IMG/VR virus record: IMGVR_UViG_3300028888_000061
Span: 74,362 to 138,361 of that record
Length of the DNA stretch: 64,000 nt
From: a virus
Lineage: Duplodnaviria > Caudoviricetes
Direction: 5' to 3' (one strand)
Shown here: positions 33,041 through 62,796 of the stretch, one piece after another
Position numbering within the stretch: the stretch's first letter is position 1
Layout of the letters: each line of letters opens with the position of its first letter
Program-made: the position numbers and the translations under genes
Notes under the pieces: generated by a model
What the model was told of the DNA's origin: nothing
The model's input: only the letters and a program-made list of their open reading frames with translations
Database searches by the model: none

Positions 33041-34432
33041 ATGATACGATTTGAAAAGCATTACAGATATGAAAGTGACGATTCCGTGTATGATGGTGTT
33101 ACAGACACGGATGCGTCTTCATGGTTTACTGCGGAGTTTTTGAAACGCAGGTTTTCAGAGTATAATACTCGGTTTTTCGGCGGTCAGATTCCTGAAGTTC
33201 CAGTTAAAATCGGTCGTGTGTCCCAGAAGGTGTTGGGAAAGTGCGTCACTCGGACAAGCGGAGCAACAGCAGAAGACGCAAGAGAGTTCGTTCTGAAACA
33301 GCTGATGGACAAGAAAATTACGGACGATATGGATTCCATTAAGGGTGCTTTGGAACAGTATTACAGTGAGCATCCACAAAGCGTTCATGTAGAGGAAATC
33401 CATATAACTGATGGTAAATGGACGAATCGTTTTTTCTTGGAAGGCACTCTATTGCACGAGATGTGTCATGCCTATCAGATTGAGGTGCTTTGTAAGAGTA
33501 ACATCATCCTGTATTCAAAGGATTGCAAGCTCGGTAAGGGAAGTGCCGGTCACGGTCCTAAATTCTTTGAAGCCGCTGATTTGGTGAACAGCAGTCGTGA
33601 CAACGTGGAAGGGTTTAAGATAACGCAGTACGGCTCGGCAGAAGAGATGTCTCGAAAAGCATATAAGAAAGCGGACGGGTATCTTTATGTCAGGTGTCTT
33701 GCCAATCAGATGATTGAAGTCTCTTTCGTCAGTGCGAAATCTTCAAGGCAGACCGTTGTTGACATGTCAGGCACGTCATACATGTTCGGGTTTCGGGACG
33801 GTGATGTTAAGGCTAAGTTCAAGGTTACCAGACGAACCCAGTTCAAACTTACGAACAAGTATGTCCGTGATGTTGAAGAAGCAATCGTGAATGGTGACTT
33901 GTTTTTGTACGCCGTGAACGAGTATGGTGTATGGGACCGTTTAATCCTTACGGAGAATGACCGTACTGACATTAGTCAGTTTATAGGTTACAATTCTGTT
34001 GTCGATTGCTCGTTGTTCGGGGTCACAGCGAATTATGGCGACTTGGATGACCTTGTAAAGGGTGTTGCTTCAACGGGTGCCAAGTGGTTGGTTAAACGTA
34101 TCAGTCGTGTAATTGAGCGTGCGGGTATTTCAGAGCAGTACGTTCGCATCTATCCTGAATCTTTTGAGTCTATGTTCGCAATTACTGATGAAGACAGTAT
34201 TTCATTTTATGGACGCTGTCTGAATCAGCCGGAAGATGGTCGTCTTTCGTTCTCAGCACTCAAGCGTCCGTTTACAGAAAGAAGACACCGTAGGTCGTAT
34301 GAGATGAATGCTTCCGATTTATCAGATAAAGTGGACGATGCCTTATTCTCTCTGTTCGATTTTGACAACAGCGATGTGTCAGTAGACAGTAATGGTGACC
34401 TTGTGATGGAAGTCGAACATCACGTTCTTTAA
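33041..34432 (+). CDS. SprT-like zinc metalloprotease with R-x-E leader
   Basis: YNTRFFGG...TLLHEMCH...GHGPKF SprT motifs; leader MIRFEKHYRYES. Confidence 0.85.
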   Translation: MIRFEKHYRYESDDSVYDGVTDTDASSWFTAEFLKRRFSEYNTRFFGGQIPEVPVKIGRVSQKVLGKCVTRTSGATAEDAREFVLKQLMDKKITDDMDSIKGALEQYYSEHPQSVHVEEIHITDGKWTNRFFLEGTLLHEMCHAYQIEVLCKSNIILYSKDCKLGKGSAGHGPKFFEAADLVNSSRDNVEGFKITQYGSAEEMSRKAYKKADGYLYVRCLANQMIEVSFVSAKSSRQTVVDMSGTSYMFGFRDGDVKAKFKVTRRTQFKLTNKYVRDVEEAIVNGDLFLYAVNEYGVWDRLILTENDRTDISQFIGYNSVVDCSLFGVTANYGDLDDLVKGVASTGAKWLVKRISRVIERAGISEQYVRIYPESFESMFAITDEDSISFYGRCLNQPEDGRLSFSALKRPFTERRHRRSYEMNASDLSDKVDDALFSLFDFDNSDVSVDSNGDLVMEVEHHVL

Positions 34433-34448
34433 GTGTGGGCTTTTTATT

Positions 34449-36137
34449 ATGGCAAGCAGATTAAAGGGTAGAGATTACACAACGTTGCGCCGAGAACTCA
34501 TTGAGATGGTTCGTCAGCGTGTGCCTGTGGACTGGAATCCTAATAACATAGCAGACCCGCTGATAGCCGTCATTGAAGCCATTGCTTTAGCCGGGGACCA
34601 TCTGCATTATTACATCGATTCGTGGCGACGTGAATGCGATATGGCAACAGCCACACTTCAGTCGAGTATTTATTCGTATGCACTTCGTGAGGGATACAGT
34701 ATGGTTCTCCCTCGTGGTAGTCGTGTCCGGGCTTTTATTCAGCCTACACCTGAGCGTGACGAACGTGGCGAGATAATTGATGGTCAGGAGCACGTCCCTG
34801 TTCCTGTTGACCTTCCAAGGTTTACCCAATTCAATGCACCTGGTATTTCAAAGTCTTTGTTTGCAGTTAAAGACTTTACAAAGGTCGTTTCTTATTACGG
34901 CAAGACGGTTGTTTCAGAGCAGTGTATTGATTTAGTGTGCGGTGAGCTCAATTCAATCACATTTCGTTACTCTGATATTGATGCGTATTCTCGCATTGAG
35001 CTTCCAGACCCTTACATCGACGGAGAACTTGTTGAGCTCACAAGTACAACACCTACTGGTGGTACAGTCGTTTGGGAGTGTGTCTCTGATGTTGTCACAA
35101 AGGGGTTGCAGGGAAATGTTTACTCTTTAGTTCCGACTTTTGTCTCAGGGGCAACAAGACTTTACATTGAGTTCCCTTTGAATTACAGGAATCTTATTAC
35201 GTCTTCACGTGTTTTGTTTACGTTCCGTTTCGTCTCTGTGTCGAACATTACTCGGCCACTTCCGATTACATTGACAACGGCTGTGATTTCGTCAGACCAG
35301 GTTGAGATTTCAGGTATTGATGAGCTTGGTGGTTATTCTGGATATGAAACTGCTGATGCAGTCCGCCGAAATTACCCGCTGTACACACGTGACTTTACAG
35401 CATTGCTTACTAAGCAGGATTATCGCCTGTACTTGTCTTATCGTTATGGTGGTCGTATTCTTGTGTACGACAAGCAGGACGAATATGACAGTCAGGATTA
35501 TGAGCATGGCGTGTTTGGTTTGTGGGAACGCAGCATGTACGTGATTAGTGAGCTTCCTTATAGAGCGAGGGAACTTGCGAAATACGATTTGGCTTCTCGG
35601 TCTTCTCGTTCAGACATGATATGGATGATTCCTTTCGGGTATTATGCTTATGGTATCCTTGTTGTGGTTAATGTTGATTTAGCAAAGGTGTCTGAGGATG
35701 AGATTTCAACGCTTACGGAACGTGCCTTGTTGAATCTCTATAACGGTACCGATGAAATCAAGGGTCCTATACAGTCGGTTATTTTATCGACCGTTCACGG
35801 CGTCAGCGAACATATTGCGAATGTTCAGGCTATGTTGTTTAAATATCATGGTTCCCAGTTTCAGGGGATAATGACGATGAATAAACCGTCTGCAAAGAAT
35901 CAGGAACTGCAGAAGACGTTAAACGGGTTTACAAGCGATTATGCGTACAAGGTCAAGAACTGTATGCCTAAGCATGTGAGCGGATTTTCTGACTATAACG
36001 ATGCGGTTCTTCACTGGACACTTGGTTATGATTCAGAAGAGATAGACACGTATGAGGAAGGAACACAGGAGTATGAAGATACGCATTTCCTGATTCCATT
36101 CTGTCAGAAAGTGACTGTGTGGGTATATTCCATTTAG
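34449..36137 (+). CDS. baseplate wedge protein (gp6/J-like)
   Basis: RDYTTLRRELI...DW...LHYYID...ATATLQSSI...GYS; GGYSGYET...ALLTKQDY. Confidence 0.85.
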   Translation: MASRLKGRDYTTLRRELIEMVRQRVPVDWNPNNIADPLIAVIEAIALAGDHLHYYIDSWRRECDMATATLQSSIYSYALREGYSMVLPRGSRVRAFIQPTPERDERGEIIDGQEHVPVPVDLPRFTQFNAPGISKSLFAVKDFTKVVSYYGKTVVSEQCIDLVCGELNSITFRYSDIDAYSRIELPDPYIDGELVELTSTTPTGGTVVWECVSDVVTKGLQGNVYSLVPTFVSGATRLYIEFPLNYRNLITSSRVLFTFRFVSVSNITRPLPITLTTAVISSDQVEISGIDELGGYSGYETADAVRRNYPLYTRDFTALLTKQDYRLYLSYRYGGRILVYDKQDEYDSQDYEHGVFGLWERSMYVISELPYRARELAKYDLASRSSRSDMIWMIPFGYYAYGILVVVNVDLAKVSEDEISTLTERALLNLYNGTDEIKGPIQSVILSTVHGVSEHIANVQAMLFKYHGSQFQGIMTMNKPSAKNQELQKTLNGFTSDYAYKVKNCMPKHVSGFSDYNDAVLHWTLGYDSEEIDTYEEGTQEYEDTHFLIPFCQKVTVWVYSI

Positions 36138-36140
36138 CGG

Positions 36141-37385
36141 ATGGGTAGTTCACTTATGAGAGCAATGACGGAATACCTGGCAGAACATCTGCCTATCATA
36201 GAACTTCTTCTTGAGGAGTTCCGACTGTCCATAAAAGACCACGCACGTGAGCTTGCGGATTCATTACAGCTTTATGGTATGGATGCCGACACTGTACGTG
36301 CAAAACTGGACATGCTTGGTATGGATGTCGGTGAACTTGAAGAGACCTGGGTTCCGTCACCACAGTTCTACAAGCTGTACAGAAGGATTATCCGTAACCG
36401 TTCTACGAGTGGTTCTGTTCAGACTCTTGTTCGTACAGGCGGACAGCTTGAGGCCAGTTACCGTACACTGGACGAGATGAATTTCTACAAGAATCTTAAC
36501 GTGTACAGGGATTATCAGAACCCAACGGTCTTTGGTAAAGACGGTTACTTTTATACCGTTTATGACCCGAAGTATCCTGTCTCCTCTAATGCTCTTATTC
36601 GTAACGCTTTGCCCGCAGGATATTCTCTGTTCTTTGTCACTCAGTTTTACGGTCACGAAGACTCTGAGATTTTTCAGTATGATACGATAATCACAAACGC
36701 TCCGCTTTACAGAGACCCATATACGGAACATCTCGACAATGACCGTGTGTACATTTCAGACTTTCCTGATGATGCTGTAAATGAATGTGACCTTGTTTTT
36801 GATTACGTTCTTCACGAAGCTCTCCGGCTGTCAAACGTAAAGGGTATCATGCCACAACACGACATGGGATGGTCTCTTGGAGGTTTGTCTGTTCGCTCGA
36901 AAACTCTTGGAGATTTGTTCCGTGAGCGTGATGTACGTACACAACCGAAGAACAAAACATGGGTTGAACTTCTTAACCATCAAGGTACAGGACTTGTAAA
37001 TGAAGGGCAGCATTATGTTCATGCCGGTGTTGTAACTGGTGTTCAGCGTGTTCGTGAGGACGGACTTGTGATTACCGACTCTATGCAGTATCACAAGGAG
37101 ATGATTGTTTCGGAACGTCAGGAGTTCGACATTCTCCATGAAGCTGTTAATATACCTGTTCCCGATGATGACTCACGCATCTATGTTGACATTGTTGTTC
37201 CAGTTTCTCCGACGGATGTTGTTGATGTTGGTACGTTTGAAGATGTACCTACGGGTGTTATTCCGTTTTCGGTGCGTTCGACGGCAGCTTGTGTTGTTGA
37301 GTCGGATGACGATGTTGTTTCTTGTGATTTGGTTGCAGACGTTGGTACGATTGAGTTGTCAATCTTTGAAATTCCTGAGATGTAA
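36141..37385 (+). CDS. probable baseplate protein (gp7/I-like)
   Basis: Directly follows J-like gene; ALPAGY motif. Confidence 0.5.
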   Translation: MGSSLMRAMTEYLAEHLPIIELLLEEFRLSIKDHARELADSLQLYGMDADTVRAKLDMLGMDVGELEETWVPSPQFYKLYRRIIRNRSTSGSVQTLVRTGGQLEASYRTLDEMNFYKNLNVYRDYQNPTVFGKDGYFYTVYDPKYPVSSNALIRNALPAGYSLFFVTQFYGHEDSEIFQYDTIITNAPLYRDPYTEHLDNDRVYISDFPDDAVNECDLVFDYVLHEALRLSNVKGIMPQHDMGWSLGGLSVRSKTLGDLFRERDVRTQPKNKTWVELLNHQGTGLVNEGQHYVHAGVVTGVQRVREDGLVITDSMQYHKEMIVSERQEFDILHEAVNIPVPDDDSRIYVDIVVPVSPTDVVDVGTFEDVPTGVIPFSVRSTAACVVESDDDVVSCDLVADVGTIELSIFEIPEM

Positions 37386-37387
37386 GC

Positions 37388-38198: not shown

Positions 38199-38832
38199 TT
38201 CGCTTTTTGCTTCGTTTCGTAAGGCTGTGTTGGCAGGCTTGTTTATTTCGCTTGGGTGTATTGTCAATTTGATGGTCGGCGGTGCTCTCGGAGCTTTTTT
38301 GTTTTCGTTTGGATTGTTGTCTGTTGTTCTGTATGGTGTTCCGTTGTACACCGGAAAGGCAGGATTCTGTTCGACCATTGATGACCTTAAAAGACTTTGT
38401 GTTATTCTGTTAGGTAATATCGTTGGTGCGTTTCTTCTCGCTGTTTGCGTTCATTTCTGCTTTCCAGAGGTGTCTGTCGCCTCAGAAAACATCTTGTCTT
38501 CTCGTTTGTCGTCAGATGTTCCTCGTGCTGTACTTGCTTCTATTCTGTGTGGTTTTGTGATGACTACGGTTGTTCGGTTTGCACGACGAACAGAATTTTC
38601 ACAAAACAATCAAAAGTATGATGGCAATTTGGTGGTTCTACTACTTGGTATTCCATTGTTCATCTTGTCCGGGTATTGGCATAGCATTGCTGATGCTTTT
38701 TATTATTCCGTGTGTTTGACGTTCAGTGTCAAGTTACTTGTCGTTTACCTTATTACGGTTGTTGGCAACTTCATCGGATGCAATTTGTACAATCTCATTT
38801 CTGGTGGAACTGTCTTTGTCCGTGATAAATAG
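38191..38832 (+). CDS. formate/nitrite transporter (FNT, FocA/NirC-like)
   Basis: AVLAGLFISLG, FSFGL..LYTG, GNIVG, FILSGYWHSIAD, GNFIG; ~6 TM. Confidence 0.85.
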   Translation: MTDSLFASFRKAVLAGLFISLGCIVNLMVGGALGAFLFSFGLLSVVLYGVPLYTGKAGFCSTIDDLKRLCVILLGNIVGAFLLAVCVHFCFPEVSVASENILSSRLSSDVPRAVLASILCGFVMTTVVRFARRTEFSQNNQKYDGNLVVLLLGIPLFILSGYWHSIADAFYYSVCLTFSVKLLVVYLITVVGNFIGCNLYNLISGGTVFVRDK

Positions 38833-38852
38833 TTGTATCGTGGAGAGTTTTT

Positions 38853-39137
38853 ATGATAAAAAAACGAGAGTCTAAAAAATCCTTCAAACGTGAGGGTTTG
38901 TGGGATACGTTTATCGACCACGGACATGAAATTTTACTTGCCACATCCCTATTGGATTCTGTGATAAATAAGACGATTTCCACAAAGAGACAGCTTGTCC
39001 GTGCTGAAGAGACGGGCGAGGATGAAGCTGCCTCAACTGCACTACAGCAGTATATTGACGAAATCCATGAAATTTCTGCTCGCATGGAGGATTTGGACAT
39101 GATAGACCCTACATGGGAGCGTAAGCGATACCTGTAA
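38853..39137 (+). CDS. small protein with basic R/K-x-E leader
   Basis: MIKKRESKKSFKREG then helical acidic body; GGAGAG SD. Confidence 0.65.
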   Translation: MIKKRESKKSFKREGLWDTFIDHGHEILLATSLLDSVINKTISTKRQLVRAEETGEDEAASTALQQYIDEIHEISARMEDLDMIDPTWERKRYL

Positions 39138-39169
39138 TCATTTTTCTTTTTGTTAAGGAGAGATGTCGT

Positions 39170-41002
39170 ATGTTCGACCGCGTTGTTTTGTGTTCTGAAG
39201 GTAAAACTCTTCACGCAGCTTTACGTGCTAAGAATCTTGAACTTGCCAATAATGATTTGGTCAAGGTTTATCTGATAAATGAAAGCACGTTGAACAGCAG
39301 CTTTGACATGGCCGGTGTCACGGCTTCAATGATGAGCGGCGTTCCACAGCTCACGTCTGTTTTCTCGATGCAGACGGAACTTCATGTTGCGGCTTATGGT
39401 TCATCCAGTAATTCATCGGTAGGTGGTTACTATGCCGTTGTCGTGGTAAGTGGCAAGGCTTTGATTTGTGCCCGTTCTGATGAGCGTTTGATTGCTAATG
39501 AAAAATTGGCAATGACCTTTGATGTCGAAGAGACCAACGGTGTTTTGAAAGCTACTGCCGACTTTGATGGAAACATCACTCAAGGTCTTTTGAAAATGCT
39601 TGTTGGTGCCGGAGAAGTGTCAATCAAGAAACACACAGATGATGATGCTGCCATTGGCACTTTTACTGTGAATGATTCTTCTGACACAGAGATTGACCTT
39701 GCGTTGGGTACTGCAGCTGATGCTGATGTTCTTGAGGGTTCGGCTCTTGAGTGTTTCAGTGATTCAGAGTTAATTTCTGACAACGACAAGTTGGTTAATC
39801 TCGAACAGGCTGACGATGTCGCTAAAATGCGTGCTGAAGAAGTTGCCGCTTCTATTGGCGATGGTGAGTTGACAATTAGTGCGGGTAATAACACAGTCAC
39901 ATTCACTGCAAACAGTGATTCTGATGCATCCCTTACGCTTGGTGAAGCGGCGAATCATGGTGTTGATTCTTCGATTACGTCAGGTACGACTTCCAACGGT
40001 CTCCCAACGTCTTCGGCTGTTGATGCTTTCGTTGGTAAAGGTGATTTGTCGATTACCGTTCATCCTAACGGTGCTGCACTTAATACGACATTCAGTGCAA
40101 ATGCTTCGTCCAATGTGAACATTAACCTCGGTTTGGGCGATGCTGCTGATAAAGATGTTGACAGTGCTGTTTCCGACAACTCGACAAACTTGCCGACCAG
40201 TGCTGCTGTTGCCACTTATGTTTCTGACCAGTTGAGCGACCCGGACAATGTTGGTAATGGTACAATCAGTGTTTATGCCGGTTCTGCAAACAACACAGCT
40301 CTTGGGTCTTTCACCGTAAATCAGAAAGCCAATTATAATTTGGTTCTTGGTGCAGCCGCTGAAAAGGGTGTTGACTCTTCCATTCCTACTACAAATGTTT
40401 CGACAAACTTGCCGACCAGTGAAGCGGTTGTTGACTATGTTGGTAAAGCAAATCTTACTATTAAGAAGCATACGTCAGACAACAGTCCTGTCGGTACATT
40501 TAGTGCGAATGCACAGACAGATGTTGCTGTTGACCTCGCATTGGGTACGGCTGCCGACAAGGATGCTTTGCTCGATAACAATCTGACGGATGTCACGAAT
40601 CACGGTGATGACCTTACGTCACTTTCACAGGTGAAGACGTTAGTAGAGCAGGCCACTGCTGTGAACGCTCTTGCACCTGCCGACGCTGCTGTACAAGAAA
40701 TCACACCGGCAGTTGGTCAGATGATGTGGCTTGCAATCAACTTCTCTGGTCAGGTTGGTATCGTGGATTTCACAACCGCCGCTGTCCAGTCTTCGACGCC
40801 TTCTTGGAATGGAACAACGACTTCTGCGACAGATGCTTATCTTGCTGAAATCGTAGACAATGCCGGTGACTTCCGTGCTACACAGAATCGCATAATTGCC
40901 GGTTGTACGTTCCGTACTCTGAACGCTATGGATTCAACAGGTATGACAAGTCCTTCTTATGGATTTGCTCTTTGTGTTTGTACAGCAGTTCCAGAACCGT
41001 AA
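39170..41002 (+). CDS. tail fibre-like protein with internal repeats
   Basis: Repeats of G.LTI...TF.AN....LGxAAxxxVD..I....LPTSxAV. Confidence 0.7.
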   Translation: MFDRVVLCSEGKTLHAALRAKNLELANNDLVKVYLINESTLNSSFDMAGVTASMMSGVPQLTSVFSMQTELHVAAYGSSSNSSVGGYYAVVVVSGKALICARSDERLIANEKLAMTFDVEETNGVLKATADFDGNITQGLLKMLVGAGEVSIKKHTDDDAAIGTFTVNDSSDTEIDLALGTAADADVLEGSALECFSDSELISDNDKLVNLEQADDVAKMRAEEVAASIGDGELTISAGNNTVTFTANSDSDASLTLGEAANHGVDSSITSGTTSNGLPTSSAVDAFVGKGDLSITVHPNGAALNTTFSANASSNVNINLGLGDAADKDVDSAVSDNSTNLPTSAAVATYVSDQLSDPDNVGNGTISVYAGSANNTALGSFTVNQKANYNLVLGAAAEKGVDSSIPTTNVSTNLPTSEAVVDYVGKANLTIKKHTSDNSPVGTFSANAQTDVAVDLALGTAADKDALLDNNLTDVTNHGDDLTSLSQVKTLVEQATAVNALAPADAAVQEITPAVGQMMWLAINFSGQVGIVDFTTAAVQSSTPSWNGTTTSATDAYLAEIVDNAGDFRATQNRIIAGCTFRTLNAMDSTGMTSPSYGFALCVCTAVPEP

Positions 41003-41022
41003 GCGTATTCTTGTTTGTGTTT

Positions 41023-47346: not shown

Positions 47347-47358
47347 AAGGAGTTGTTT

Positions 47359-47757
47359 ATGCAAGTTTCTCATGCACAGTGGGTCGATACGGAGCACACT
47401 TGTTTTAATGTCATTGTCAGCTCTGATGAGTTTGAGAATTTACCATATAGTGTTTGCTTAAACAGTGATGACGAAGCACCTGTACACAGACAGCTTGTTG
47501 AGATGTACAGGAATGGTCAACTTGAAATACAGGAATGCGATGAAGAAGCATTGAACAATGAAGTCATTTCTTCTGTAAGATTACAGAGGGACGCATTACT
47601 GTCAGAGACCGACAAGTTTATGACGATTGATTACCCAATATCAGACGAAGACCGTAATGCACTAAGAGTATATCGCCAGGCACTTCGTGATGTTCCACAG
47701 CAGGAAGGATTCCCTGACAATGTGGTATGGCCGGAGAAACCATCCTGTCTCAAGTGA
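47359..47757 (+). CDS. tail fibre assembly chaperone
   Basis: VRLQRDALLSETD...YRQALRDVPQQEGFPDNVVWPEKP. Confidence 0.9.
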   Translation: MQVSHAQWVDTEHTCFNVIVSSDEFENLPYSVCLNSDDEAPVHRQLVEMYRNGQLEIQECDEEALNNEVISSVRLQRDALLSETDKFMTIDYPISDEDRNALRVYRQALRDVPQQEGFPDNVVWPEKPSCLK

Positions 47758-51045: not shown

Positions 51046-51672
51046 ATGACAAGACATAAACGTAAAGTACGATGTGAGGCGTCAGACATCTACCAGGAAT
51101 TTGATGACCATCCGATGCTCCAGAGCATTTGTGATACGGTACTCAGCATACCTTCTTTGGTTCCGTTTAGTGTTGACCTCAATCTGTACCTTTATTCAGA
51201 AGAGCCTTTAACTTACGTTATTGACCTTGTCATGGCTGACACTGGATTTCATTTGTTCTCATTGTCCGTTGTTTTCCGTTTTGAAAATACGGTGCATGTC
51301 TTTGATGCAGACATTCTCTATTCATGTGATGATGTTCCATGTTATGAGGATGCTTTTATTGCGTCATGCGACAATATTTCCGATGCAACTTCTGTTGAGA
51401 TGTTCCTTGAGAGTTTGTCTGGGATTGTTGAGTCTTATATGCAGGAGCTTCTTTGCGATATTCCGTTGTATGTATGTGAGGACATGTGCAGTGCAGGTGT
51501 GACTCAGTGTCCTGCATATATACCGGTTAAAACTGTGCTTGGTCTTGGTCAGTTGGCAGAACACACATTGGATGTTCCTGTTGTTCCTGATAAAACAGAT
51601 AAAAAGATGGCAACTCGGGTCAGGCATCTTTTGACTAAACAGCAGAAGACGTTATCCAATGAATTGAAGTGA
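51046..51672 (+). CDS. acidic protein with basic R-x-E leader
   Basis: MTRHKRKVRCEASD leader. Confidence 0.7.
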   Translation: MTRHKRKVRCEASDIYQEFDDHPMLQSICDTVLSIPSLVPFSVDLNLYLYSEEPLTYVIDLVMADTGFHLFSLSVVFRFENTVHVFDADILYSCDDVPCYEDAFIASCDNISDATSVEMFLESLSGIVESYMQELLCDIPLYVCEDMCSAGVTQCPAYIPVKTVLGLGQLAEHTLDVPVVPDKTDKKMATRVRHLLTKQQKTLSNELK

Positions 51673-51684: not shown

Positions 51685-52119
51685 GTGTTTATGCGCAGGC
51701 AACGAACCAGATATGAGCATATTATGAAACATCGATTGTCATTTGGCAGACGGTATGAAGCTGACGGTGAGAGCGATGACGGTGCTTCGACAAAAACGAC
51801 AGGCATGGCTTATCGTTTTTACTCGCTTCTCTATGGTGAGCGAACGTTGGCACAGTGTATGGAATACCCTGATGTGGAAAATAATGTCCATGACTTTGAA
51901 ATCTTTGCAATGAGTCAGTCAGGTGTGAAGGCTGCTCTTAAAGAGACTACTTTTTTAAAAAAGCAGGACTACGCAATTATAAACCGTTTGAGAAGCGGAT
52001 TTCTGGATGTTATTGTCGGGTATGTGATTCCTGAATCGGTTAAATATACGAACACGTGGGAGTATGCCGAAGTGTCCGTTGGTATGGACCAGGATATCAA
52101 GGTTACATGGAGACATTGA
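51685..52119 (+). CDS. protein with basic R-x-E leader
   Basis: MRRQRTRYEHIMKHRLSFGRRYEAD. Confidence 0.7.
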   Translation: MFMRRQRTRYEHIMKHRLSFGRRYEADGESDDGASTKTTGMAYRFYSLLYGERTLAQCMEYPDVENNVHDFEIFAMSQSGVKAALKETTFLKKQDYAIINRLRSGFLDVIVGYVIPESVKYTNTWEYAEVSVGMDQDIKVTWRH

Positions 52120-52203: not shown

Positions 52204-54108
52204 ATGAAAAATTACGGAGACGTTTGTCTTATCAACGGCGGTAAAGTCGAGGCGGTTGACTGCGTTATTGGAGGCAGCCCATGTCAAAACCTGTCTGTGG
52301 CCGGAAACAGAAAGGGTCTTGAAGGGAGCGAGTCACGTCTTTTCCTTGAACAGATGCGTGTGGTCAAAGAAATGCGGCAGGCTACCGGATTTCAGAAACC
52401 ACGTTACATGGTCTGGGAGAACGTTATCGGTTCCCTATCCTGTAACAAAGGAAAGGACTTTCAGTGCGTTTTAAATGAGTGTGTTGAAACTGCGCTCTTG
52501 GGTAAGATAAACCTCAACAAAGGAACGAAAGATGGCGAAGAGAACTTTACAGAAGAAGACAGAGATGGAAGAGAGACGGGAATCCCTGATGTGCCTATGC
52601 CTAAAGACGGAAAGTGGCCAAAATCCGGAATCCTCTACGATGACATGGGAAGATGGAGCATTGCTTGGAGAGTACATGATGCACAATATTGGGGAGTCGC
52701 CCAACGCCGTCGTAGAATCGCGCTTGTCTGCGATTTTGGAGGAATGTCCGCACCAGAAGTACTACTTGAGCAGCAAAGCGTGTCAGGGGATTTTAACCCG
52801 TGCAACACGCAGGGGGAAAGAGTTACCGAAACCTCTGTTGGAAGCTCTGAAGAATCAGATAGAATCTGGGATGCAAGGGGAAATGGAAACGGACAGCTCT
52901 GCGCAACTCTCACAGGAGACCATGACAACCGAATAACGGATTACACGAATGTCGTTGTCCAGAAAGAAGAGCCTTATCTTTTAGAAAGCAATCAGAATCA
53001 TGCTACTGTAACTAATAATGGCGTGTGTTCTACTTTACCGGCATCCATGGGTTTAGGTGGCGGTTATGTTCCGATGGTTACAGAAGAGTCTTATTCAATC
53101 AATGGTGATGCACATGAATCTGGCGTATCGGTTATGAATGAAGTGTCTCATGCTTTGAAGACCACAACAAAAGAATCTGTATTCGTGAAACAGATTTCAG
53201 ATGAAGTTGCATCAGAGCCATCTTATCCGTGTATCTGCATTGGAAATGGTCAGGCTCATGTTACTGAGCATTACACCGAAGAGATTTCACAGACGTTAAA
53301 CTGTATGCACGACCCAATGACTATTCTTGAGCCTTGTGCTTATCAGTTGGTCGGCGTGAACAGTAACAGCATGAAGAGTTCCAATCCGAACAGTGGGTGT
53401 TACGAAACGGAACAGGCAGGTACGATAACTACGAATGGTTGTGTACCGAATAACCAGGGCGGTACTGCCATTATGGAGCCTGTAATACCTCTTGAAGGAA
53501 ATGGGTGCCGTGAATCACATAAAGGTGATGGGTGGAGTACAGAGCAGGTTTCTTATACGTTGAATACTGTAGAGAGGCATGGGGTTGCGTATGGTGAAAC
53601 AGATTCCTCCGCTGAATCTCACCCTGTTGTTGTAGACCGTGCAGCTTTTAACCAAGGTAAGAATGCACAGTTCGACATTAAGATTGAAGAGACGGAAACC
53701 GTACCGTCAATGGTTGCACGTGGACCTCATGCAGTAGCACAGCCTGTTCAGTATCGTGTTCGCCGTTTAACGCCTCTTGAATGTACACGTTTGCAGGGGT
53801 ATCCAGATGGATGGGTCGATATTGGTGATTGGATTGATACGAAAGGTAAGAAGCATAAGGAAGCAGATGCACCTAAGTACAAAGCGTTAGGTAATTCGAT
53901 TGCTCTACCATTCTGGAAATGGCTGTGTAAGAATATTGTAAATGAGTTACAGAAAGATGGTCAGACCACTACAATGGCAAGTCTGTTTGACGGTATCGGT
54001 GGTTTCCCGTTGTGTTGGACAGAAGCGACACAATCAAAAGAAACAGTACTTTGGGTAAGCGAGATTGAAGAATTCCCACTTGCCGTTACACGTCATCATT
54101 TTTCCTAG
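52204..54108 (+). CDS. C5-cytosine DNA methyltransferase, circularly permuted
   Basis: GGSPCQ (IV) near the N-terminus, WENV (VI), QRRRR (VIII), RRLTPLECTRLQG (IX), LGNS (X), then SLFDGIGG (I) and SEIEEF (II) at the C-terminus. Confidence 0.92.
   Translation: MKNYGDVCLINGGKVEAVDCVIGGSPCQNLSVAGNRKGLEGSESRLFLEQMRVVKEMRQATGFQKPRYMVWENVIGSLSCNKGKDFQCVLNECVETALLGKINLNKGTKDGEENFTEEDRDGRETGIPDVPMPKDGKWPKSGILYDDMGRWSIAWRVHDAQYWGVAQRRRRIALVCDFGGMSAPEVLLEQQSVSGDFNPCNTQGERVTETSVGSSEESDRIWDARGNGNGQLCATLTGDHDNRITDYTNVVVQKEEPYLLESNQNHATVTNNGVCSTLPASMGLGGGYVPMVTEESYSINGDAHESGVSVMNEVSHALKTTTKESVFVKQISDEVASEPSYPCICIGNGQAHVTEHYTEEISQTLNCMHDPMTILEPCAYQLVGVNSNSMKSSNPNSGCYETEQAGTITTNGCVPNNQGGTAIMEPVIPLEGNGCRESHKGDGWSTEQVSYTLNTVERHGVAYGETDSSAESHPVVVDRAAFNQGKNAQFDIKIEETETVPSMVARGPHAVAQPVQYRVRRLTPLECTRLQGYPDGWVDIGDWIDTKGKKHKEADAPKYKALGNSIALPFWKWLCKNIVNELQKDGQTTTMASLFDGIGGFPLCWTEATQSKETVLWVSEIEEFPLAVTRHHFS
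52532..52936 (+). CDS. nested alternative-frame ORF resembling the beta polypeptide of two-chain C5 MTases
   Basis: ESRLSAILEECPHQKYYLSSKACQGILTRATRRGKELPKPLLEAL; GGAGAG SD before internal ATGATG near 52676. Confidence 0.55.
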   Translation: MAKRTLQKKTEMEERRESLMCLCLKTESGQNPESSTMTWEDGALLGEYMMHNIGESPNAVVESRLSAILEECPHQKYYLSSKACQGILTRATRRGKELPKPLLEALKNQIESGMQGEMETDSSAQLSQETMTTE

Positions 54109-54117: not shown

Positions 54118-55488
54118 ATGAAAAGAAATCAACCGAGAAGTTCGTATTGCAAGCGGTACGAAAGGAAGATAGACAAGACCAGTTTGTGGGGTCTAAGTAC
54201 AGAGATTCAAAGGTTATTTCCTTGGAAAACGTCTAAAGCGAACAACCGTTTCGATTTAAATGATAAAGTGTCCTTTCGGGTAGTCTCTGAATGTGATATA
54301 GACTTGTTTTATTTGGATGTCAACCGTGTTGAGTTCGTCTCTAAAAATATTAGAACTGGAAGAGAGTTGAAACGTATAACCGTACAGCTCAACGATTACT
54401 CAGTTTCTGATGATTCTATGAAAGCATTACAGTGCATTTATGCAATGCTCAAATCCGGAATGATTCCGGATGAGGACTTTAGTGTGTGCGGATTATTTTA
54501 CCTCCGTCCGGATGGTGTTGTGGTAGAGCATGGTCTTACCGTTCTGTCCAAGAATGAATTGGAGATGTGGTTTAAGCGTGGAGTTCCTGACGACGGTACT
54601 TGGATTCTTGTCACCAATGAAGACCTTTTGAATGAAAATTGGAATCATCCTTATATGTCTGTAACGGATGGTGTTTTCACGTTCAATAGAGGTAATGAAA
54701 AACGCGGTGTTTTACAAAAGAGAACGAGAACAGAAGGTCTTGTTCGTGATGCAGTTGATGCGGAAGGTGTCAAGGCTTTCTGGAAGGAGGCATTCGCACT
54801 TGCTGTGGAAAGTCTTAAAGATAATTATTCTGTCGAAGAGAGCATGGATGGTGTTTACATCACAATGACAGACAAGTTTGGTTATGAACTTAGTTATCAG
54901 GGGTACGTCGTATTTGAAGGTGTTGAAGGCGATGAGTTGATTCTTCACATGGTGTGGCCTGATGATGTGTCTATTTTGCAGGAGGCAAAAGTCTTTTCAG
55001 GTGTGGAGAATGCAGCACCGTTGGATTCAGTAGGCATTGATGATATTTCTAACGCTTCTAAGAAGGAAGCTGTTATGGATGAAATCTCTGAGATTATTGA
55101 CGCCCTCAAGGATGCCAAGAAAGGTGTCGAGGACTATATGTACTCTCAGATTGATATGGACATTGCAGACTCTATGTCTGGTTCAGGTACCGTTGAAGTT
55201 GTTAAAGTTTCGCTTCCTGATGAGGATATCGTTGATTACGACCCTGATTATCACGATGATGAACGTGCTGCGGTTCTTCTTGCCGCAGGTGAAGCCATTG
55301 TTTCGGAAATAGAGTATTACGTTCAAAATTGTGCACGTGATGCGGACAAAATTATTTCCCGGGCACGTGATGAGATTGATGACCTTGAGCAGAGTATTCA
55401 GGACGACTTGACCGAAGCTGAGCAGCTTCTTAAAGAGATTGCTCGTTCTGAACCGTATGAATCAAGAAGGTCTCGCAGACGAAGATAA
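54118..55488 (+). CDS. putative polyprotein cargo with basic leader/linker/tail
   Basis: KRYERK, KRTRTEG, PYESRRSRRRR; very acidic second half. Confidence 0.75.
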   Translation: MKRNQPRSSYCKRYERKIDKTSLWGLSTEIQRLFPWKTSKANNRFDLNDKVSFRVVSECDIDLFYLDVNRVEFVSKNIRTGRELKRITVQLNDYSVSDDSMKALQCIYAMLKSGMIPDEDFSVCGLFYLRPDGVVVEHGLTVLSKNELEMWFKRGVPDDGTWILVTNEDLLNENWNHPYMSVTDGVFTFNRGNEKRGVLQKRTRTEGLVRDAVDAEGVKAFWKEAFALAVESLKDNYSVEESMDGVYITMTDKFGYELSYQGYVVFEGVEGDELILHMVWPDDVSILQEAKVFSGVENAAPLDSVGIDDISNASKKEAVMDEISEIIDALKDAKKGVEDYMYSQIDMDIADSMSGSGTVEVVKVSLPDEDIVDYDPDYHDDERAAVLLAAGEAIVSEIEYYVQNCARDADKIISRARDEIDDLEQSIQDDLTEAEQLLKEIARSEPYESRRSRRRR

Positions 55489-55562: not shown

Positions 55563-56000
55563 ATGGTTAGAAAATTACGTCGTTTTGAATCCGCTTCTGA
55601 CAGTGTTGTGTACACTGCGAAACTAGCTGATTTTACGTCTGAGGAAGACGATTATCGTCAAGGTGTGATTGGTAGGGGGACAAGTTGGGATATTCCTTTA
55701 AGACTCGAAGCATCTACGCTTGAAGAGCTTTTTCATCGTGTTCAAGAAAAACTTTATATGACAGATAAAGATTACTCGTGGGCTGTTATGGCCGATGAGA
55801 GTTGTTTTTTGGTTTCGTACATGGGTGATACCGATAACGATTTAGCTTCTAAAAGTGAAATAGATGCTTGGAAGCGAGGAAAGGAGCGTCTTTGGTATGT
55901 TCAAGGAAGGATTGCTGTTCAAAAACATTCTAAGTCTTTGGATGTTCCAGAGGAAGAGATGAGGGAGCTTGCCTCATCTGAGCATCTTGACCTTGTGTAA
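55563..56000 (+). CDS. acidic protein with RRFES leader
   Basis: MVRKLRRFESASD; AAGGAG SD. Confidence 0.8.
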   Translation: MVRKLRRFESASDSVVYTAKLADFTSEEDDYRQGVIGRGTSWDIPLRLEASTLEELFHRVQEKLYMTDKDYSWAVMADESCFLVSYMGDTDNDLASKSEIDAWKRGKERLWYVQGRIAVQKHSKSLDVPEEEMRELASSEHLDLV

Positions 56001-56031: not shown

Positions 56032-56544
56032 ATGATTAGACGTAACACAAGAAACATTCGCCGGACACGTCTGGAAAAACGTTCTATGCGTAACAATAAC
56101 CGCAACATAGCAATAAACAGACGTTTTGAGTCATCATACAATATGAATGACAGCGAACTCAAGAAATGGGCTGCTGAACATTGCATCGACCGTCTTGATG
56201 AGATGGAAGGCGTTGAAGTCTATATGGACGAGCTTGCAACGGAACTGACCGATAGGGAAAACATGGACGGAACGGTTTTCATGTCCACACAGAAATCATG
56301 GGATTTCATTTCGCAGAACCGTTATGATGCCGGTGACGTTCTTGACGAATGGGTTTCTGAAACAGGTACGTGCAAACCGAACCCGCTTTCTGACCCGGAT
56401 GCTTTTTGCGTTCTTTTGCTTGAGCATTATGTCCGTGAAGTGCTTGATGCTTGTCCGTCTGTTGAATCTTTTGGCTCTGGAAAACAGGAACTCACACGTG
56501 AGATGATTGATGCATTAACGGAAGAGCTTGAACAATTCTGTTAA
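56032..56544 (+). CDS. acidic helical protein with long Arg-rich RRFES leader; DNA-mimic candidate
   Basis: 33-aa basic leader then D/E-rich body; GGAGG SD. Confidence 0.75.
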   Translation: MIRRNTRNIRRTRLEKRSMRNNNRNIAINRRFESSYNMNDSELKKWAAEHCIDRLDEMEGVEVYMDELATELTDRENMDGTVFMSTQKSWDFISQNRYDAGDVLDEWVSETGTCKPNPLSDPDAFCVLLLEHYVREVLDACPSVESFGSGKQELTREMIDALTEELEQFC

Positions 56545-56750
56545 ACAAGAGGGCGTCCATATTATGGACGCCTTCTTTTATTTACCAAAAGCGAACCGCA
56601 AGCCAACGCACTTTAGCGAGTTGGTAGTTGACTTTAGTGTCATGGTGCTGCTTCGACACTTCTACAAAACCTGTGCTATACGTTTTTGTGAAGAGAGGCA
56701 ATGGTTAGGCCACTCTAAGCTAACGGGTTTTGTTTTGGAGGAGTTGAATA

Positions 56751-57167
56751 ATGTCGAATTTGATTATGAAGAAAAGCACTTACGAGACACTTAAAAATGA
56801 CGGGTACACGGATAAGCAGATAAAGGCACTTGCATCAATGGCAACCTTTAACTGTGCGTCGGAATATCATGGTAAAATGGACGCCTATTCATGCAGACCG
56901 TTTCCGTCCGGCAAATGCTGTCTGTGCTTCATCAACCAAGATAAGTACTCTGATGACTGGGAATCCTCCGATGTCAAATATGCTTATGCGAACAAGCGTA
57001 GTTTTAATCAGATACTTGCGGGTGTTCGTCGCAAAGCCTTTAAAGACTGCTGTCCCTATATCCGTTACGAGAAATGGGATAATGACAACCGTTGGTATTT
57101 CGATTATGACATGTTTAAGAACGACATTCCATACACGAAAGAAAACTACGTTGCATTCAACATCTGA
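56751..57167 (+). CDS. hypothetical protein
   Basis: GGAGGAG SD; 138 aa. Confidence 0.7.
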   Translation: MSNLIMKKSTYETLKNDGYTDKQIKALASMATFNCASEYHGKMDAYSCRPFPSGKCCLCFINQDKYSDDWESSDVKYAYANKRSFNQILAGVRRKAFKDCCPYIRYEKWDNDNRWYFDYDMFKNDIPYTKENYVAFNI

Positions 57168-57209
57168 GTAGCCGATTTTTTGTACACGTGATTATGTTCT
57201 GGATGAATC

Positions 57210-59041: not shown

Positions 59042-59138
59042 GGTTATCCTGTGGTGCTGTGCATCAACAATTCTTGCCCTTATGATATAACGGATTTGTC
59101 GGCAATGACGCTGACCAATAACCCAGTGGGGTTTTATC

Positions 59139-59594
59139 ATGTCACATCGTTATGTTTCATTCTGTAATCATTCCGATAACCCTAATCGTTGCTGCAAGCT
59201 GTCCGTGCTTCGTTTCGTCACGTTGACATTGGGTGACGGAAAGATGGTGCGTTGTTACCGGCATGATCAAGAAGATGGCGGGACGGCTTATACGTTTCAG
59301 CCATGTGCAACAGAGACATTTAAAAGCTCTTCTGGAACTGAGTATCGTTGCGGTTATGGACTTTACGTTGTCGATGATGACAACGATTCTTTCTTTTCCA
59401 TTGAGAGCAGAAGTGATGTTCTGCATGAGGTTTTTGATTCTTTCCGTCAAGATGGTATTCCCATCAAGCACGCAACTGTTTGCGATGAGATTATTCCTTG
59501 TAATAGCAGGGGAAACCTTGTGAATAAGAAAATCTATACACTTTCGGCGAGTTTCGAGGTGGATGGTGATTACCAACTCGGACTTGTTCGGTAA
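59139..59594 (+). CDS. hypothetical protein
   Basis: ORF with plausible composition; start probably at MVRCY. Confidence 0.5.
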   Translation: MSHRYVSFCNHSDNPNRCCKLSVLRFVTLTLGDGKMVRCYRHDQEDGGTAYTFQPCATETFKSSSGTEYRCGYGLYVVDDDNDSFFSIESRSDVLHEVFDSFRQDGIPIKHATVCDEIIPCNSRGNLVNKKIYTLSASFEVDGDYQLGLVR

Positions 59595-59660
59595 GTGTAC
59601 GACAATCTAAATAGTGGTGGCCTTGTAGCCGTTGTTTAATTCTTTGTTAGCAGGTGACTT

Positions 59661-60227
59661 ATGATTCGCAAGAAAACAAAATTGAATATTAGCACACGAA
59701 AGTTGACGCTTCGTGAACGTAGTGAGAAAAAGAACTCTTTACGTAAGATTGCACGTCGTAACTTTGTTCGTACTGAATCTCGTAATCGTGTTAAATCCGA
59801 AAAGTTCACCCGTGGATGGGAAGCTCTGATGGATGAATGCATCGATATCGACAATGCTGATATGGCAGATGACTTCTTTGATGAAGTACAGGATACGGCT
59901 CGCAAGCTCGACCTTATTTGCACGGATGGAAAACCTTTCAATGCAAACGATGCAAAACAGGCATGGGACAATGTTGAAAATCATGTGAATGATGAAGTTG
60001 ACAAACTTCTCGAACAGTACGGTGATGACCTTGAGGACGTTCCATGCATTGGTCTGAAATACTTCGGGTATGATGACACGTTGGCCATTGGTATTTACGA
60101 CAGCGGCAACTTTGACCCCGTCTATGGATGGGAGTTCCGTGAAGCTCCTGCGATGGGTCTTGAGAATCGCCGTGTCCGTCGTAACGATGTTAAAACCAAA
60201 GTACGTGGTCGTTACGTAAGACGTTAA
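59661..60227 (+). CDS. acidic protein flanked by basic leader and tail
   Basis: Leader ending RTESRNRVKSEK; tail GLENRRVRR...YVRR. Confidence 0.75.
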   Translation: MIRKKTKLNISTRKLTLRERSEKKNSLRKIARRNFVRTESRNRVKSEKFTRGWEALMDECIDIDNADMADDFFDEVQDTARKLDLICTDGKPFNANDAKQAWDNVENHVNDEVDKLLEQYGDDLEDVPCIGLKYFGYDDTLAIGIYDSGNFDPVYGWEFREAPAMGLENRRVRRNDVKTKVRGRYVRR

Positions 60228-60286
60228 TCGTTATTTTTGTCTCATGGAGTAGCCAATAGACTACTCCTTTTTCTGGAGGTTGTCTT

Positions 60287-61000
60287 ATGGCTACTTTACG
60301 TGGTTACCTTACCAATTTGGGTAAATACAACGAAGGTGATTTGGTTGGCGAGTGGGTTACACTTCCCATTGATGAGGATGAACTTGAAGACGTTTTTAAG
60401 CGTATCGGAATCAGCGATAAGCCTGATGAGAATGGTGTCTATTATGACGAGTACTTCTGGACTGATTGGGAGTGTGACATTCCAGAAGTTTGCGATACGC
60501 TTGGTGAGTATTTGAATCTTGATGAAGCTAACGAGATAGGTGAAAAAGTCGAAAGCGTGGATAACGTGGATGCTTTCGCTGCCGCTTTAGAAATTCTTGG
60601 AAGCGTTGATGAAGCCTTCGAGCATGTTGACGAGATGGTATTTATCGGCGAGGGTTATGATGCCGACCGTGTTATTGGTGAGCATTATGCTTCTGAGATA
60701 GGTTCGTTTGACGATGAAACACTTGATCGATACTTCGATTATGAATCTTTGGGTCGCGATATCCGTCTTGAGTATTATGCTTCTGAGGAAGGTGACCCTG
60801 AGACAGCCGGAGAGTACTGGTGTGGTGATGAACTTGCGACAGATGAAGAAATCGGCGAGGCTGTTGTTTCAGAACTTGGTATTGACGGCATTAAGAACAA
60901 AGATGTTTACTTTGATGAAGTCGCTTTCGGACGTGATATTCGCATTGAGGGTTCCTTCTGTGAACTTGACGGTCAAATTTGGGAATACACTGGACGCTAG
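60287..61000 (+). CDS. ardA: ArdA anti-restriction protein
   Basis: YLTNLGKYNEGDLVGEWVTLP, EYFWTDWE, LGEY, YFDYESLGRDI; highly acidic. Confidence 0.93.
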   Translation: MATLRGYLTNLGKYNEGDLVGEWVTLPIDEDELEDVFKRIGISDKPDENGVYYDEYFWTDWECDIPEVCDTLGEYLNLDEANEIGEKVESVDNVDAFAAALEILGSVDEAFEHVDEMVFIGEGYDADRVIGEHYASEIGSFDDETLDRYFDYESLGRDIRLEYYASEEGDPETAGEYWCGDELATDEEIGEAVVSELGIDGIKNKDVYFDEVAFGRDIRIEGSFCELDGQIWEYTGR

Positions 61001-61017
61001 GTTTCTGGGTGATTGCT

Positions 61018-62796
61018 ATGAAGAAGCAGCATGGACATGTAAACCGTTTACGACACGACGAAGTTACCTCACGTGACATCCCCAATTTGTCTGACCGTCG
61101 AAGTTACGCACGTTCACGTTCATCGAATATCGTTGCACGTTTCGTAGACTTCAACAAAGAGACAGGAGAGGTTCATTACAGCGTTACGTCACAAGCGAAA
61201 GCAGGGAAGTCGTATACGGTAACATTTCGTTTTAAGGACTGGAATCCTGACATGGCACATCTGGATGATGAAATACAGCACGCCGTAAAGGGTAATATCG
61301 AAATAGACTGTACATGTCCTGCTTTCACCTATCAGGGGTACAAGTTTCTTGCTTCTATAAAGGGTGGTAGCGTTGACATTGAACGTCGTCCACCAGATGA
61401 AACAAATCCTGACAGGCATGGGTATGCTTGTAAGCACATATTAAAGGCAATCGACAGTTTTAATCAGGATTTCGATAAATTTCGAGCAGAGGGAAAGGGT
61501 ATGATAAAGAAACACAATTTAAGGGTTCAGCATAAGTATGAACGCCGTCAGACACTAGAATCTTCGTCAAGTTATTCACTTTCAGAGAAACTTGATATGC
61601 GTTTTATGACCTACTGTGATGAAGTTCTCGGTATTCACTTGTCGAGTATTCAGTCTTCTTCACTTAGGTCGTCCATGGCTAAAGCACTCCATGACTACAT
61701 GGAACAGTTGATGGAGCTCTGTGACCTCGGAAATACGTATGACGCTTTGGAACGTGTTTTTGCAACCGGCAATCCGAAAGGTTTTGACGAAAAGAACCAG
61801 GATAAATATGACCGACTGGTGAACACGTTAAAACGCCATTTCAGCAACTTGTCTGGCGGTGTGTTTGAAGTGCATGAAGCACGTGGCGGTCGGGTAGGTC
61901 ATTTCCCTACGGATATTCGTATTGAATTCGGTCTTGATGATGGTGGAACAACGCTTTGGACAAGTTCGTTACGCATTCCGCTCACTTTATGTTTTCCACC
62001 GTTCGGACAGTTCCGTCTTCTCCCTGAGAAACTTATCGCAGATAAAATCAATGATTGGATTGTTGATGAAGTTCAAAACCTTTCGGATGATTGGGACAGA
62101 GCTCGTCGTAACATTTATTCTGATATTGTTGAGGAGTCTAACATGAAGACAAGACGTAAGAATCGTAAATTTGAAGGTGTTCGGAATGAAGACCGTTTAC
62201 AGGCATTGGTCGAGTTCTGTCCGCTTCTTGACACATCAAATGTATCTGTAAACACGGTATCTGGTTATGACGGCCCTGTTACAGAAATCTCAGTAGCCGG
62301 TTCTGAGTTTTGGGTTCTGACAGAAGAAGAAGCAGCACGTGAAGCAACCGCTAGTTTTATTGAGACCTTTAGTGGTCGGGATATTGAGAGTGACTCAGCC
62401 TTGAATATGACCGCTGAGTTGACCAGTGTTCTCGATTATGATGCTATTCGTGAAGTGTATGGAGAGCCAGATTTTGATGACGACGATGAAGATGACCGTG
62501 ATGAATACGTCCCTGATGACGATGACCTGCATGACTGGGCACGTGATAACTTCTCCAATGCTGAGTTGTGGGATAATGGCATGATTGACAAGGAAAAGTT
62601 CTGTGAAGCCCTTTGGGATGTGTATGGGTATGGACAGGAACTTGATATGGAACAGCGTAATGAGTCTGTTGAGGTCAACGGTGTTGTGTTCTACATATTC
62701 CTTCGTGACGGTGAATGGCTTGCACTTGAATCCAGAAGTTTTCGTAACAAATCTTCTAGGATGAAGAAGAGACTTGAGCGAAAGACTTTTCGTTAG
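61018..62796 (+). CDS. multi-domain putative polyprotein: SWIM Zn-finger domain plus acidic domains
   Basis: CTCPAF...CKH SWIM motif; linkers HKYERRQTLES and KTRRKNRKFEG; tail ALESRSFRNK...LERKTFR. Confidence 0.75.
   Translation: MKKQHGHVNRLRHDEVTSRDIPNLSDRRSYARSRSSNIVARFVDFNKETGEVHYSVTSQAKAGKSYTVTFRFKDWNPDMAHLDDEIQHAVKGNIEIDCTCPAFTYQGYKFLASIKGGSVDIERRPPDETNPDRHGYACKHILKAIDSFNQDFDKFRAEGKGMIKKHNLRVQHKYERRQTLESSSSYSLSEKLDMRFMTYCDEVLGIHLSSIQSSSLRSSMAKALHDYMEQLMELCDLGNTYDALERVFATGNPKGFDEKNQDKYDRLVNTLKRHFSNLSGGVFEVHEARGGRVGHFPTDIRIEFGLDDGGTTLWTSSLRIPLTLCFPPFGQFRLLPEKLIADKINDWIVDEVQNLSDDWDRARRNIYSDIVEESNMKTRRKNRKFEGVRNEDRLQALVEFCPLLDTSNVSVNTVSGYDGPVTEISVAGSEFWVLTEEEAAREATASFIETFSGRDIESDSALNMTAELTSVLDYDAIREVYGEPDFDDDDEDDRDEYVPDDDDLHDWARDNFSNAELWDNGMIDKEKFCEALWDVYGYGQELDMEQRNESVEVNGVVFYIFLRDGEWLALESRSFRNKSSRMKKRLERKTFR

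Follow-up and report, generated by a model that had tools for sequence, protein, structure and literature searches.

The capsid targeting sequence (CTS) of the internal proteins of phage T4 is said to have been described by Mullaney and Black in 1996. The CTS is carried by the internal proteins IPI-III and by Alt and is removed by the prohead protease gp21 (PMC3012670, PMC9026906). The internal proteins of the T-even phages form a diverse, defence-countering set that shares only the CTS (PMC3012670), and C-terminal trimming takes place as well, in Alt and gp21 (PMC9026906). In phiKZ, 201phi2-1 and SPN3US, head and ejection proteins are processed by gp175/gp245 at S/A/G-X-E (PMC10052503, PMC5694885), and the P1 Dar system incorporates its anti-restriction proteins into the head as this is assembled and delivers them along with the DNA (PMC9024508, PMC12810830). 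Here, we analyse a 64,000-nucleotide stretch of DNA (the window) that forms the final 64 kb of a 138,361-base IMG/VR contig of an uncultured phage (IMGVR_UViG_3300028888_000061, here G000), in which nine proteins carry Arg/Lys-rich tags that end at a Glu residue. Judged by sequence comparison, these tags appear to follow the capsid-targeting logic of T4 in a variant form, with basic tags, acidic cargo, putatively cleavable C-terminal tails and fused modules.

The nine open reading frames (ORFs), together with every N-terminal, internal and C-terminal string quoted for them in a first-pass annotation of the window, were found where that annotation had placed them. They are listed below in window coordinates, with an arrow after each Glu proposed to be a cleavage site.

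33041..34432, + strand: SprT-like metalloprotease-domain protein (Pfam SprT-like, 1.8e-7), with an 11-residue leader (33041-33073) closing at Glu11
38853..39137, + strand: orphan of 94 aa, with a 14-residue basic leader (38853-38894) ending in K-R-E↓G
51046..51672, + strand: orphan of 208 aa, isoelectric point (pI) of the body 4.2, with an 11-residue leader (51046-51078) ending in V-R-C-E↓A
51691..52119, + strand: 142-aa protein, with a 23-residue leader (51691-51759) and Glu sites R-Y-E↓H and R-R-Y-E↓A
54118..55488, + strand: orphan of 456 aa, with a 15-residue leader (54118-54162)
55563..56000, + strand: 145-aa protein, with a 9-residue leader (55563-55589) ending in R-R-F-E↓S
56032..56544, + strand: 170-aa protein, body pI 4.1, with a 33-residue leader (56032-56130) of net charge +10 and sites R-L-E↓K and R-R-F-E↓S
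59661..60227, + strand: 188-aa protein, with a leader of at least 39 residues (59661-59777); at the C-terminus, G-L-E↓ is followed by a basic tail of 20 residues (60165-60224)
61018..62796, + strand: 592-aa fusion of three tagged modules, with a Pfam SWIM zinc finger

Start codons were set by eye and with the help of Shine-Dalgarno (SD)-like sites, and a GGAG/GGTG site of this kind lies upstream of each proposed ATG. The gene calls of the first-pass annotation hold, with some adjustments. The ATG at 51691 is most likely the start of the fourth gene, in preference to that at 51685, because a GGAG-like site lies upstream of it; the ninth gene has its likely start at 61018, inside ORF 60979-62796. 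The gene at 38853 is retained over the longer antisense ORF 38795-39214, which was rejected on GC content per codon position, this being gene-like for the + strand ORF only. No homologue of the 38853 protein was found in the relatives described below, and no relatives of the 54118 protein were found in viral contigs. Several of the proteins carry further sites. The 33041 protein has a possible second site after Glu421 (34303), followed by an acidic tail of 42 aa. In the 54118 protein, R-T-R-T-E↓G is an internal site (ending at 54735), and P-Y-E↓ is followed by an Arg tail of 8 residues (55462-55485). Possible short leaders starting from an internal Met were also seen in 56751-57167 (M-K-K-S-T-Y-E↓T) and 59139-59594 (M-V-R-C-Y-R-H-D-Q-E↓D), and are kept outside the count of tagged proteins.

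As the first-pass annotation had claimed, the bodies of the nine proteins are unrelated (no similarity to one another by BLASTP at E<1e-3) and more acidic than the other proteins. With the leaders taken off, the predicted mature bodies of tagged proteins have a median net charge per 100 aa of -6.3, and 98 untagged proteins one of -2.9 (Mann-Whitney P=5e-4). Basic stretches closing at a Glu are concentrated at N-termini: a generic score, requiring a net basic charge of at least +3 within the 8 residues ahead of a Glu, was reached by 26 of 115 N-termini (23%) and by 45 of 664 internal 50-aa windows (6.8%; P=1e-6). A related genome with a different type of leader (G002, see below) showed no N-terminal excess on this score, which makes it a control for the basicity that N-termini have in general. 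The R/K-x-E boundary originally proposed for the tags is enriched but too loose on its own, since the simple rule [RK]-x-E-[SAG] gave P=0.018. Leader ends in this phage are R-R-F-E↓S, R-R-Y-E↓A, K-R-N-E↓S, R-R-N-E↓S, K-R-Y-E↓S and similar, and a sharper motif, [KR][KR]x?[NFYC]E[SGA], defined post hoc, matched 23 times in G000 and the overlapping contig G006 (see below) against 3.6±1.9 in shuffled sequences (maximum of 12 in 300 shuffles). Within the first 60 residues, it matched 12 times against 0.74 expected. About 18 tagged proteins are encoded on G000 and about 9 on G006 (about 27 together, or about one-tenth of the proteins); those outside the window include genes at contig positions 12013, 12736, 22214, 43043, 54420 and 54867. 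In four proteins (54118, 59661, 61018 and contig 22214), an Arg-rich C-terminal tail directly follows a Glu.

The window encodes a portal protein of the T4 gp20 type, which ties this phage to T4-type head assembly. By way of the portal, we found the relatives G001 (227 kb), G002 (204 kb), G003 and G004 (252 kb), in all of which genes for a gp21-family protease (Peptidase S77) and a Gp23 capsid protein lie adjacent to each other, both above the Pfam cut-offs. A profile made from the four proteases then recovered G006 (IMG/VR contig 3300028888_000085; 98,607 bases), which carries both genes. The gp21-like protease expected by the first-pass annotation was thus found in G001-G004 and on G006, and not on the window's own contig.

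18916..20538 of the window, + strand: T4 gp20-type portal protein (phrog_213; best annotated match the SP-15 portal vertex protein, 29% identity, 2e-35)
24433-25995 of G006: prohead protease of 520 aa, matching T4 gp21 (PDB 5JBL, E=5.6e-4, the sole PDB sequence match)
26009-27466 of G006: gp23-type capsid protein (Pfam Gp23)

The completeness of G000 was estimated by CheckV at 72%. The first 163 bases of G006 match its last 163 (window 63838-64000) at 98.8% identity, and the ORF cut at the end of the window (63584-64000) is carried on by the first ORF of G006 (93% identity). The far end of G006 and the start of G000 match successive parts of one G001 protein. The two contigs, of which G006 has the head genes, add up to about 237 kb, near the 238.7 kb of a contig that carries an 87%-identical orthologue (P0001) of the 51691 protein. 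The end overlap, the ORF continuity, the successive matches to one G001 protein and the summed size argue that G006 supplies what G000 lacks, either from this phage itself or from a strain nearly identical to it. Searches confined to G000 were less productive: PHROGs and Pfam gave no capsid or protease match among its structural-looking proteins, and of the head proteins of Bacillus phage SP-15 only the portal, the terminase and the SWIM module had a BLAST match. A 518-aa protein at contig positions 3040-4596 was considered as a capsid protein and dismissed, since in the relatives the gp23-type gene is a different one. The region had no megablast match among annotated phages.

The protease residues that align with His85 and Ser140 of T4 gp21 are invariant across the lineages, and the G006 protease and capsid protein both contain sites that resemble the leader ends. 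In the capsid protein, K-R-V-N-E↓G stands about 12 residues ahead of the first conserved core motif, at the predicted end of the N-terminal propeptide; for comparison, the L-T-E↓A cut of T4 gp23 lies about 23 residues ahead of the equivalent motif. The site predicted for the capsid protein is R-R-Q-A-N-E↓S in G001, M-K-N-E↓S in G002 and G003, and I-S-N-E↓N in G004. The C-terminal extension of the G006 protease carries K-R-V-N-E↓S and K-R-S-N-E↓S, and F-E↓S-R directly after the protease domain is kept in all four lineages with a full-length protease (G006, G001, G004 and G002). Thus, the motif [KR][KR]x[N/F/Y]-E↓[S/G/A] is common to many leader ends, the predicted capsid site and the protease tail, and these common sites suggest the cutting rule of the protease. 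The extension itself (about 310 residues; proteases at G006 24433-25995 and G001 204215-205807) is seemingly helical or coiled-coil by sequence and may be a scaffold joined to the protease. The extreme C-terminus of the protease is R-R-N-(S)-Y-E in G002 and G003. The N-terminus of the portal is a basic stretch closing in S-D-N-E↓N, and its C-terminal tail is acidic and Glu/Gly-rich. Possibly, the portal is itself trimmed, and its acidic tail may be one partner of the basic tags.

Each lineage has a leader of its own. In G004, 16 proteins start with the 9-residue M-V-K-L-K-R-x-x-E, a pattern without a match in a background of 53 thousand amino acids. The codons of this leader vary synonymously and the DNA upstream of it differs from gene to gene, so that selection acts on the peptide; a DNA repeat or a shared 5' cassette as the source of the leader was rejected on the same grounds. 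In G002, seven proteins have a helical-type leader, L-E-x-R-I-x-R-L-E-K-L, often with K-N-E after it, and the predicted capsid site of that phage likewise closes in K-N-E; occasionally, this leader is found at the C-terminus. Orthologues of the 33041, 51691, 55563 and 56032 proteins each carry the leader of their own genome, and the similarity starts just after the Glu. In the 33041 orthologues (G001 and G004), the leader of the respective lineage stands immediately ahead of the conserved Y-D-G start of the body. The 51691 orthologues (P0001-P0004, G001 and G004) have kept the body and diverged in the leader, with a basic-x-E↓A junction retained ahead of the body. The G004 orthologue of 55563 has a leader of the G004 type, and that of 56032 has the short leader M-R-K-L-K-R-N-E. 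Several tagged proteins of G004 also match G002 proteins with leaders of the G002 type. A paralogue of the 33041 protein is encoded in the head-gene block of both G006 and G001. An ankyrin-repeat protein is tagged in G004 (9310-10524; Pfam Ank_2 just under the curated cut-off), and three leader-tagged proteins of G002 (149297-149707, 104871-106442 and 191120-192856) are ankyrin-like by visible sequence only.

The 592-aa protein encoded at 61018 appears to record the joining of such modules. It has an N-terminal leader (61018-61062) and a basic tail after A-L-E↓ (62731-62793). Between them lie an internal fossil leader that has kept its initiator Met (M-I-K-K ... Q-T-L-E↓S, the Glu codon ending at 61560) and a second internal leader, R-K-F-E↓G, ending at 62175. 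The three parts of the protein match three separate G001 proteins, two of which start with the corresponding leaders: the first joint resembles the N-terminus of G001 188495, and the second the leaders of G001 189901 and G006 32159. The AlphaFold2 (AF2) model of the protein is weak (predicted local distance difference test, pLDDT, 59), and because of this we cite it just for the low confidence of the junctions, all four tag regions falling in stretches with pLDDT below 50. Both tags are absent from the G001 orthologue of the 59661 protein (46% identity over residues 53-174).

The protein encoded at 55563 gave a confident model (AF2, pLDDT 93), in which the fold begins at residue 15 and residues 1-14, including the leader, are unstructured. 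The body is a compact beta-rich domain with the conserved signature E-E-D-x-Y-x-x-G...W. Its family comprises 78 representative phage homologues, in some of which it forms the C-terminal domain of a protein of 500-1200 aa. Among 49 short homologues scored, 22 are leaderless, with at most 6 residues ahead of the first strand of the fold, and the other 27 have at least 9 extra residues; in 14 of these 27 the net charge is at least +3, and many have Glu sites. No Pfam family matched the protein. Searches with the model gave no PDB match by Foldseek at E<=0.001, only uncharacterised phage proteins in BFVD and no usable match in the ESM Atlas; a wide VIA-align search gave a top Z of 4.9, with a few small anti-CRISPR chains at Z of about 4, within noise. 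As modelled, the body thus appears to be a widespread phage domain without a known fold or function assignment. The untagged G001 orthologue of 59661, the 61018 fusion, and a 55563 family with and without leaders suggest that tags are gained, lost and fused as modules.

The surroundings of the tagged genes bear on what their products might do. Structural genes in the window are followed, at 51-63 kb, by a block of co-oriented small genes. The first-pass annotation had placed the tagged genes near ArdA and methyltransferase genes; the adjacency stands, and these neighbours are themselves untagged.

52204..54108, + strand: fused DNA methyltransferase (C5 methylase and a second methyltransferase domain; PF00145, 2e-29; phrog_116 and phrog_16427), untagged
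60287..61000, + strand: ArdA antirestriction homologue (PF07275, 2.4e-28), untagged
27050-29062, - strand: large terminase
47353-47757: tail-fibre chaperone, with baseplate and tail-fibre genes also in the window

A second ArdA paralogue, also untagged, is encoded at contig positions 5644-6474, and both homologues begin directly with the ArdA fold. In the methyltransferase, the C5 methylase match begins at position 46 of the Pfam profile, P-C-Q is found near residue 27 and the second methyltransferase domain is C-terminal; from the sequence, the usual N-terminal S-adenosylmethionine (AdoMet) motif I seems to be missing or elsewhere. Seven of the nine tagged genes of the window lie in a variable block, made up mostly of orphans, that adjoins the ArdA and methyltransferase genes. 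The tagged bodies had no match to known anti-defence families in Pfam or PHROGs, and Pfam, when extended to further tagged proteins (10 from G000/G006, 10 from G004), returned just the SprT-like domain and weak ankyrin matches. That the tagged proteins are injected into the host and serve against its defences, as the first-pass annotation proposed, is a conjecture from the gene context.

Together, the tags and their enrichment, the protease and capsid genes, the motif that these share and the modularity of the tags across lineages, all read directly from the sequences, suggest to us that the tags are propeptides of a head-assembly system of the T4 type. The address that sends a protein to the core of the assembling prohead would be the short basic leader, joined in some proteins by a basic tail at the C-terminus; as a guess, the basic tags would bind an acidic surface of the core or portal. 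Within the prohead, the gp21-family serine protease would cut after the Glu that ends the tag, with a preference for [K/R][K/R]-x-[N/F/Y]-E↓[S/G/A]. The mature protein, in most cases acidic, would then be freed to stay in the head, and could exit with the DNA. Targeting, cleavage, head retention and ejection are all predicted steps. The tagged genes immediately ahead of the protease and capsid genes in G004 and G006, and the unstructured leader in the 55563 model, fit this reading. For the part proposed by the first-pass annotation, that modular leaders direct diverse proteins into the prohead and are then cut off after Glu, the protease, the motif at the capsid site and the tag status of the orthologues give strong comparative support, and we regard head targeting with Glu-specific trimming of the tagged proteins as likely.

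Several observations weigh against this conclusion. The Pfam families Peptidase_S77 (T4 gp21; PF03420) and Gp23 (PF07068) are absent from the 138-kb contig G000, which we attribute to the roughly 40% of the genome missing from it. The protease and capsid genes therefore lie off the window's contig, and G006 is assigned to this phage by the 163-base overlap and the ORF continuity; it may come from a near-identical strain and not from the same molecule. The maturation site of the capsid protein was located by alignment only. The sharper motif has a post hoc origin, its matches in the capsid protein and the protease having played no part in its definition, and it fits poorly at H-Y-R-Y-E↓S, R-H-D-E↓V and R-T-R-T-E↓G. 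The three weaker candidates outside the window, at contig positions 8111, 25158 and 28656, are doubtful, and the Glu of the last is not kept in G001. Several tagged genes lie among genes for replication and nucleotide metabolism. Finally, T4 IPII and IPIII have in common a 10-residue leader closing in Glu (sequences checked), which shows no similarity to the basic leaders described here.

Part of the tagged set is probably prohead core or structural. That the set as a whole is mainly core, scaffold or structural protein, cut by the head protease and then degraded or kept and not acting as effectors, seems to us unlikely, but it is the alternative that fares best. Both G004 (46-50 kb) and G006 (16.5-21.7 kb) have three tagged genes in a row immediately upstream of the protease and capsid genes, where T4 has gp67, gp68 and gp22, and the lack of any match between the tagged bodies and known anti-defence families points the same way. 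However, the gene content of the block that holds seven of the nine genes differs between close relatives, as is typical of accessory and not of core assembly genes, and the block adjoins ArdA and a methyltransferase. An SprT-like enzyme and, in relatives, ankyrin-repeat proteins are also tagged, and in T4 one address system serves core and ejected proteins alike (PMC9026906).

A more doubtful reading takes the Arg-rich tags as charge-masking pro-sequences, which would keep very acidic and possibly DNA-mimicking cargo inert or compatible with the core and would, once cleaved, stay in the head as protamine-like counter-ions of the packaged DNA. A parallel exists in adenovirus, which makes basic core peptides with its maturation protease. 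If this were true, each lineage would have an address code of its own, and sequence would directly show which proteins an uncultured phage ejects.

We consider it improbable that the basic ends are permanent nucleic acid-binding arms or cytoplasmic localisation signals that stay uncut, with the flanking Glu incidental. The tags are indeed Arg-rich and reach a net charge of +12, like DNA- or RNA-binding arms. Nevertheless, each of the 11 basic C-terminal tails listed from five genomes has a Glu immediately ahead of it, and the motif at the leader ends is also found where the capsid protein is predicted to be cut. In G004, a fixed 9-mer with a charge of only about +3 serves as leader, and the G002 leader is of an amphipathic helix type; orthologous bodies are found with all three kinds of leader, and therefore it is not simply charge that has been conserved. 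In every case, polar and acidic residues come after R-R-F-E, and since no hydrophobic core follows R-R-F the leaders are not Tat or Sec signals either. Least plausible of all, to the point of being hardly credible, is a chance or annotation artefact, in which basic N-termini are simply common and starts were picked to fit: starts were indeed set by eye and with SD-like sites, and the simple rule is weakly enriched, but the enrichment tests with G002 as internal control, the 16 G004 leaders of one type against none in the background, and the tag status kept across orthologues speak against it.

If prohead targeting and trimming hold, a set of proteins delivered with the DNA could be listed from sequence for a clade of uncultured phages of about 200-250 kb: about 27 candidates in this phage, at least 16 in G004 and at least 7 in G002, most of them orphans. 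Because T4 and P1 keep anti-restriction factors among such first-wave proteins, the list would be a focused source of counter-defence candidates. The lineage-specific leaders would also represent a natural experiment on an address peptide co-evolving with its receptor and protease, and short leaders of this kind could act as packaging tags for engineered phages.

Among known systems, the cargo-loading peptides of encapsulins are alike in that a short terminal peptide sends diverse cargo inside a shell of the HK97 fold, but they stay uncut and bind the shell itself, and neither DNA nor ejection is involved. Loading in the P1 Dar system is hierarchical, by way of DarA/Hdf, whereas here a shared cleavable leader is the candidate signal; Dar homologues were not seen in this phage, although no search was aimed at them. 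In phages of the phiKZ type, as proposed here, many head proteins have N-terminal propeptides that are cut after Glu by a gp21-related protease, with redundant sites (PMC10052503). Their rule of a small residue at P3 does not apply here, where P3 is mostly Arg/Lys or variable; their propeptides are domains of 100-250 residues, in contrast to the short tags of this phage, in which no core genes of the phiKZ type were seen. The closest likeness is to the T4 CTS: in both cases, unrelated proteins have a short leader ending in Glu, the protease is of the same family, the portal is of the gp20 type and the capsid protein of the gp23 type, and C-terminal processing, which takes place in T4, is predicted here. 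The differences are nonetheless considerable. T4 has a near-neutral leader on basic cargo, whereas here strongly basic tags are found on acidic cargo. The tags vary in length (8-39 aa) and often hold two or three Glu sites; the preference at P2-P5 appears to be [K/R][K/R]-x-[N/F/Y], as compared with L/I at P3 in T4. This phage has about 27 candidates per genome where T4 has a handful, Arg-rich C-terminal tails are frequent, and the address sequence has diverged between sister lineages.

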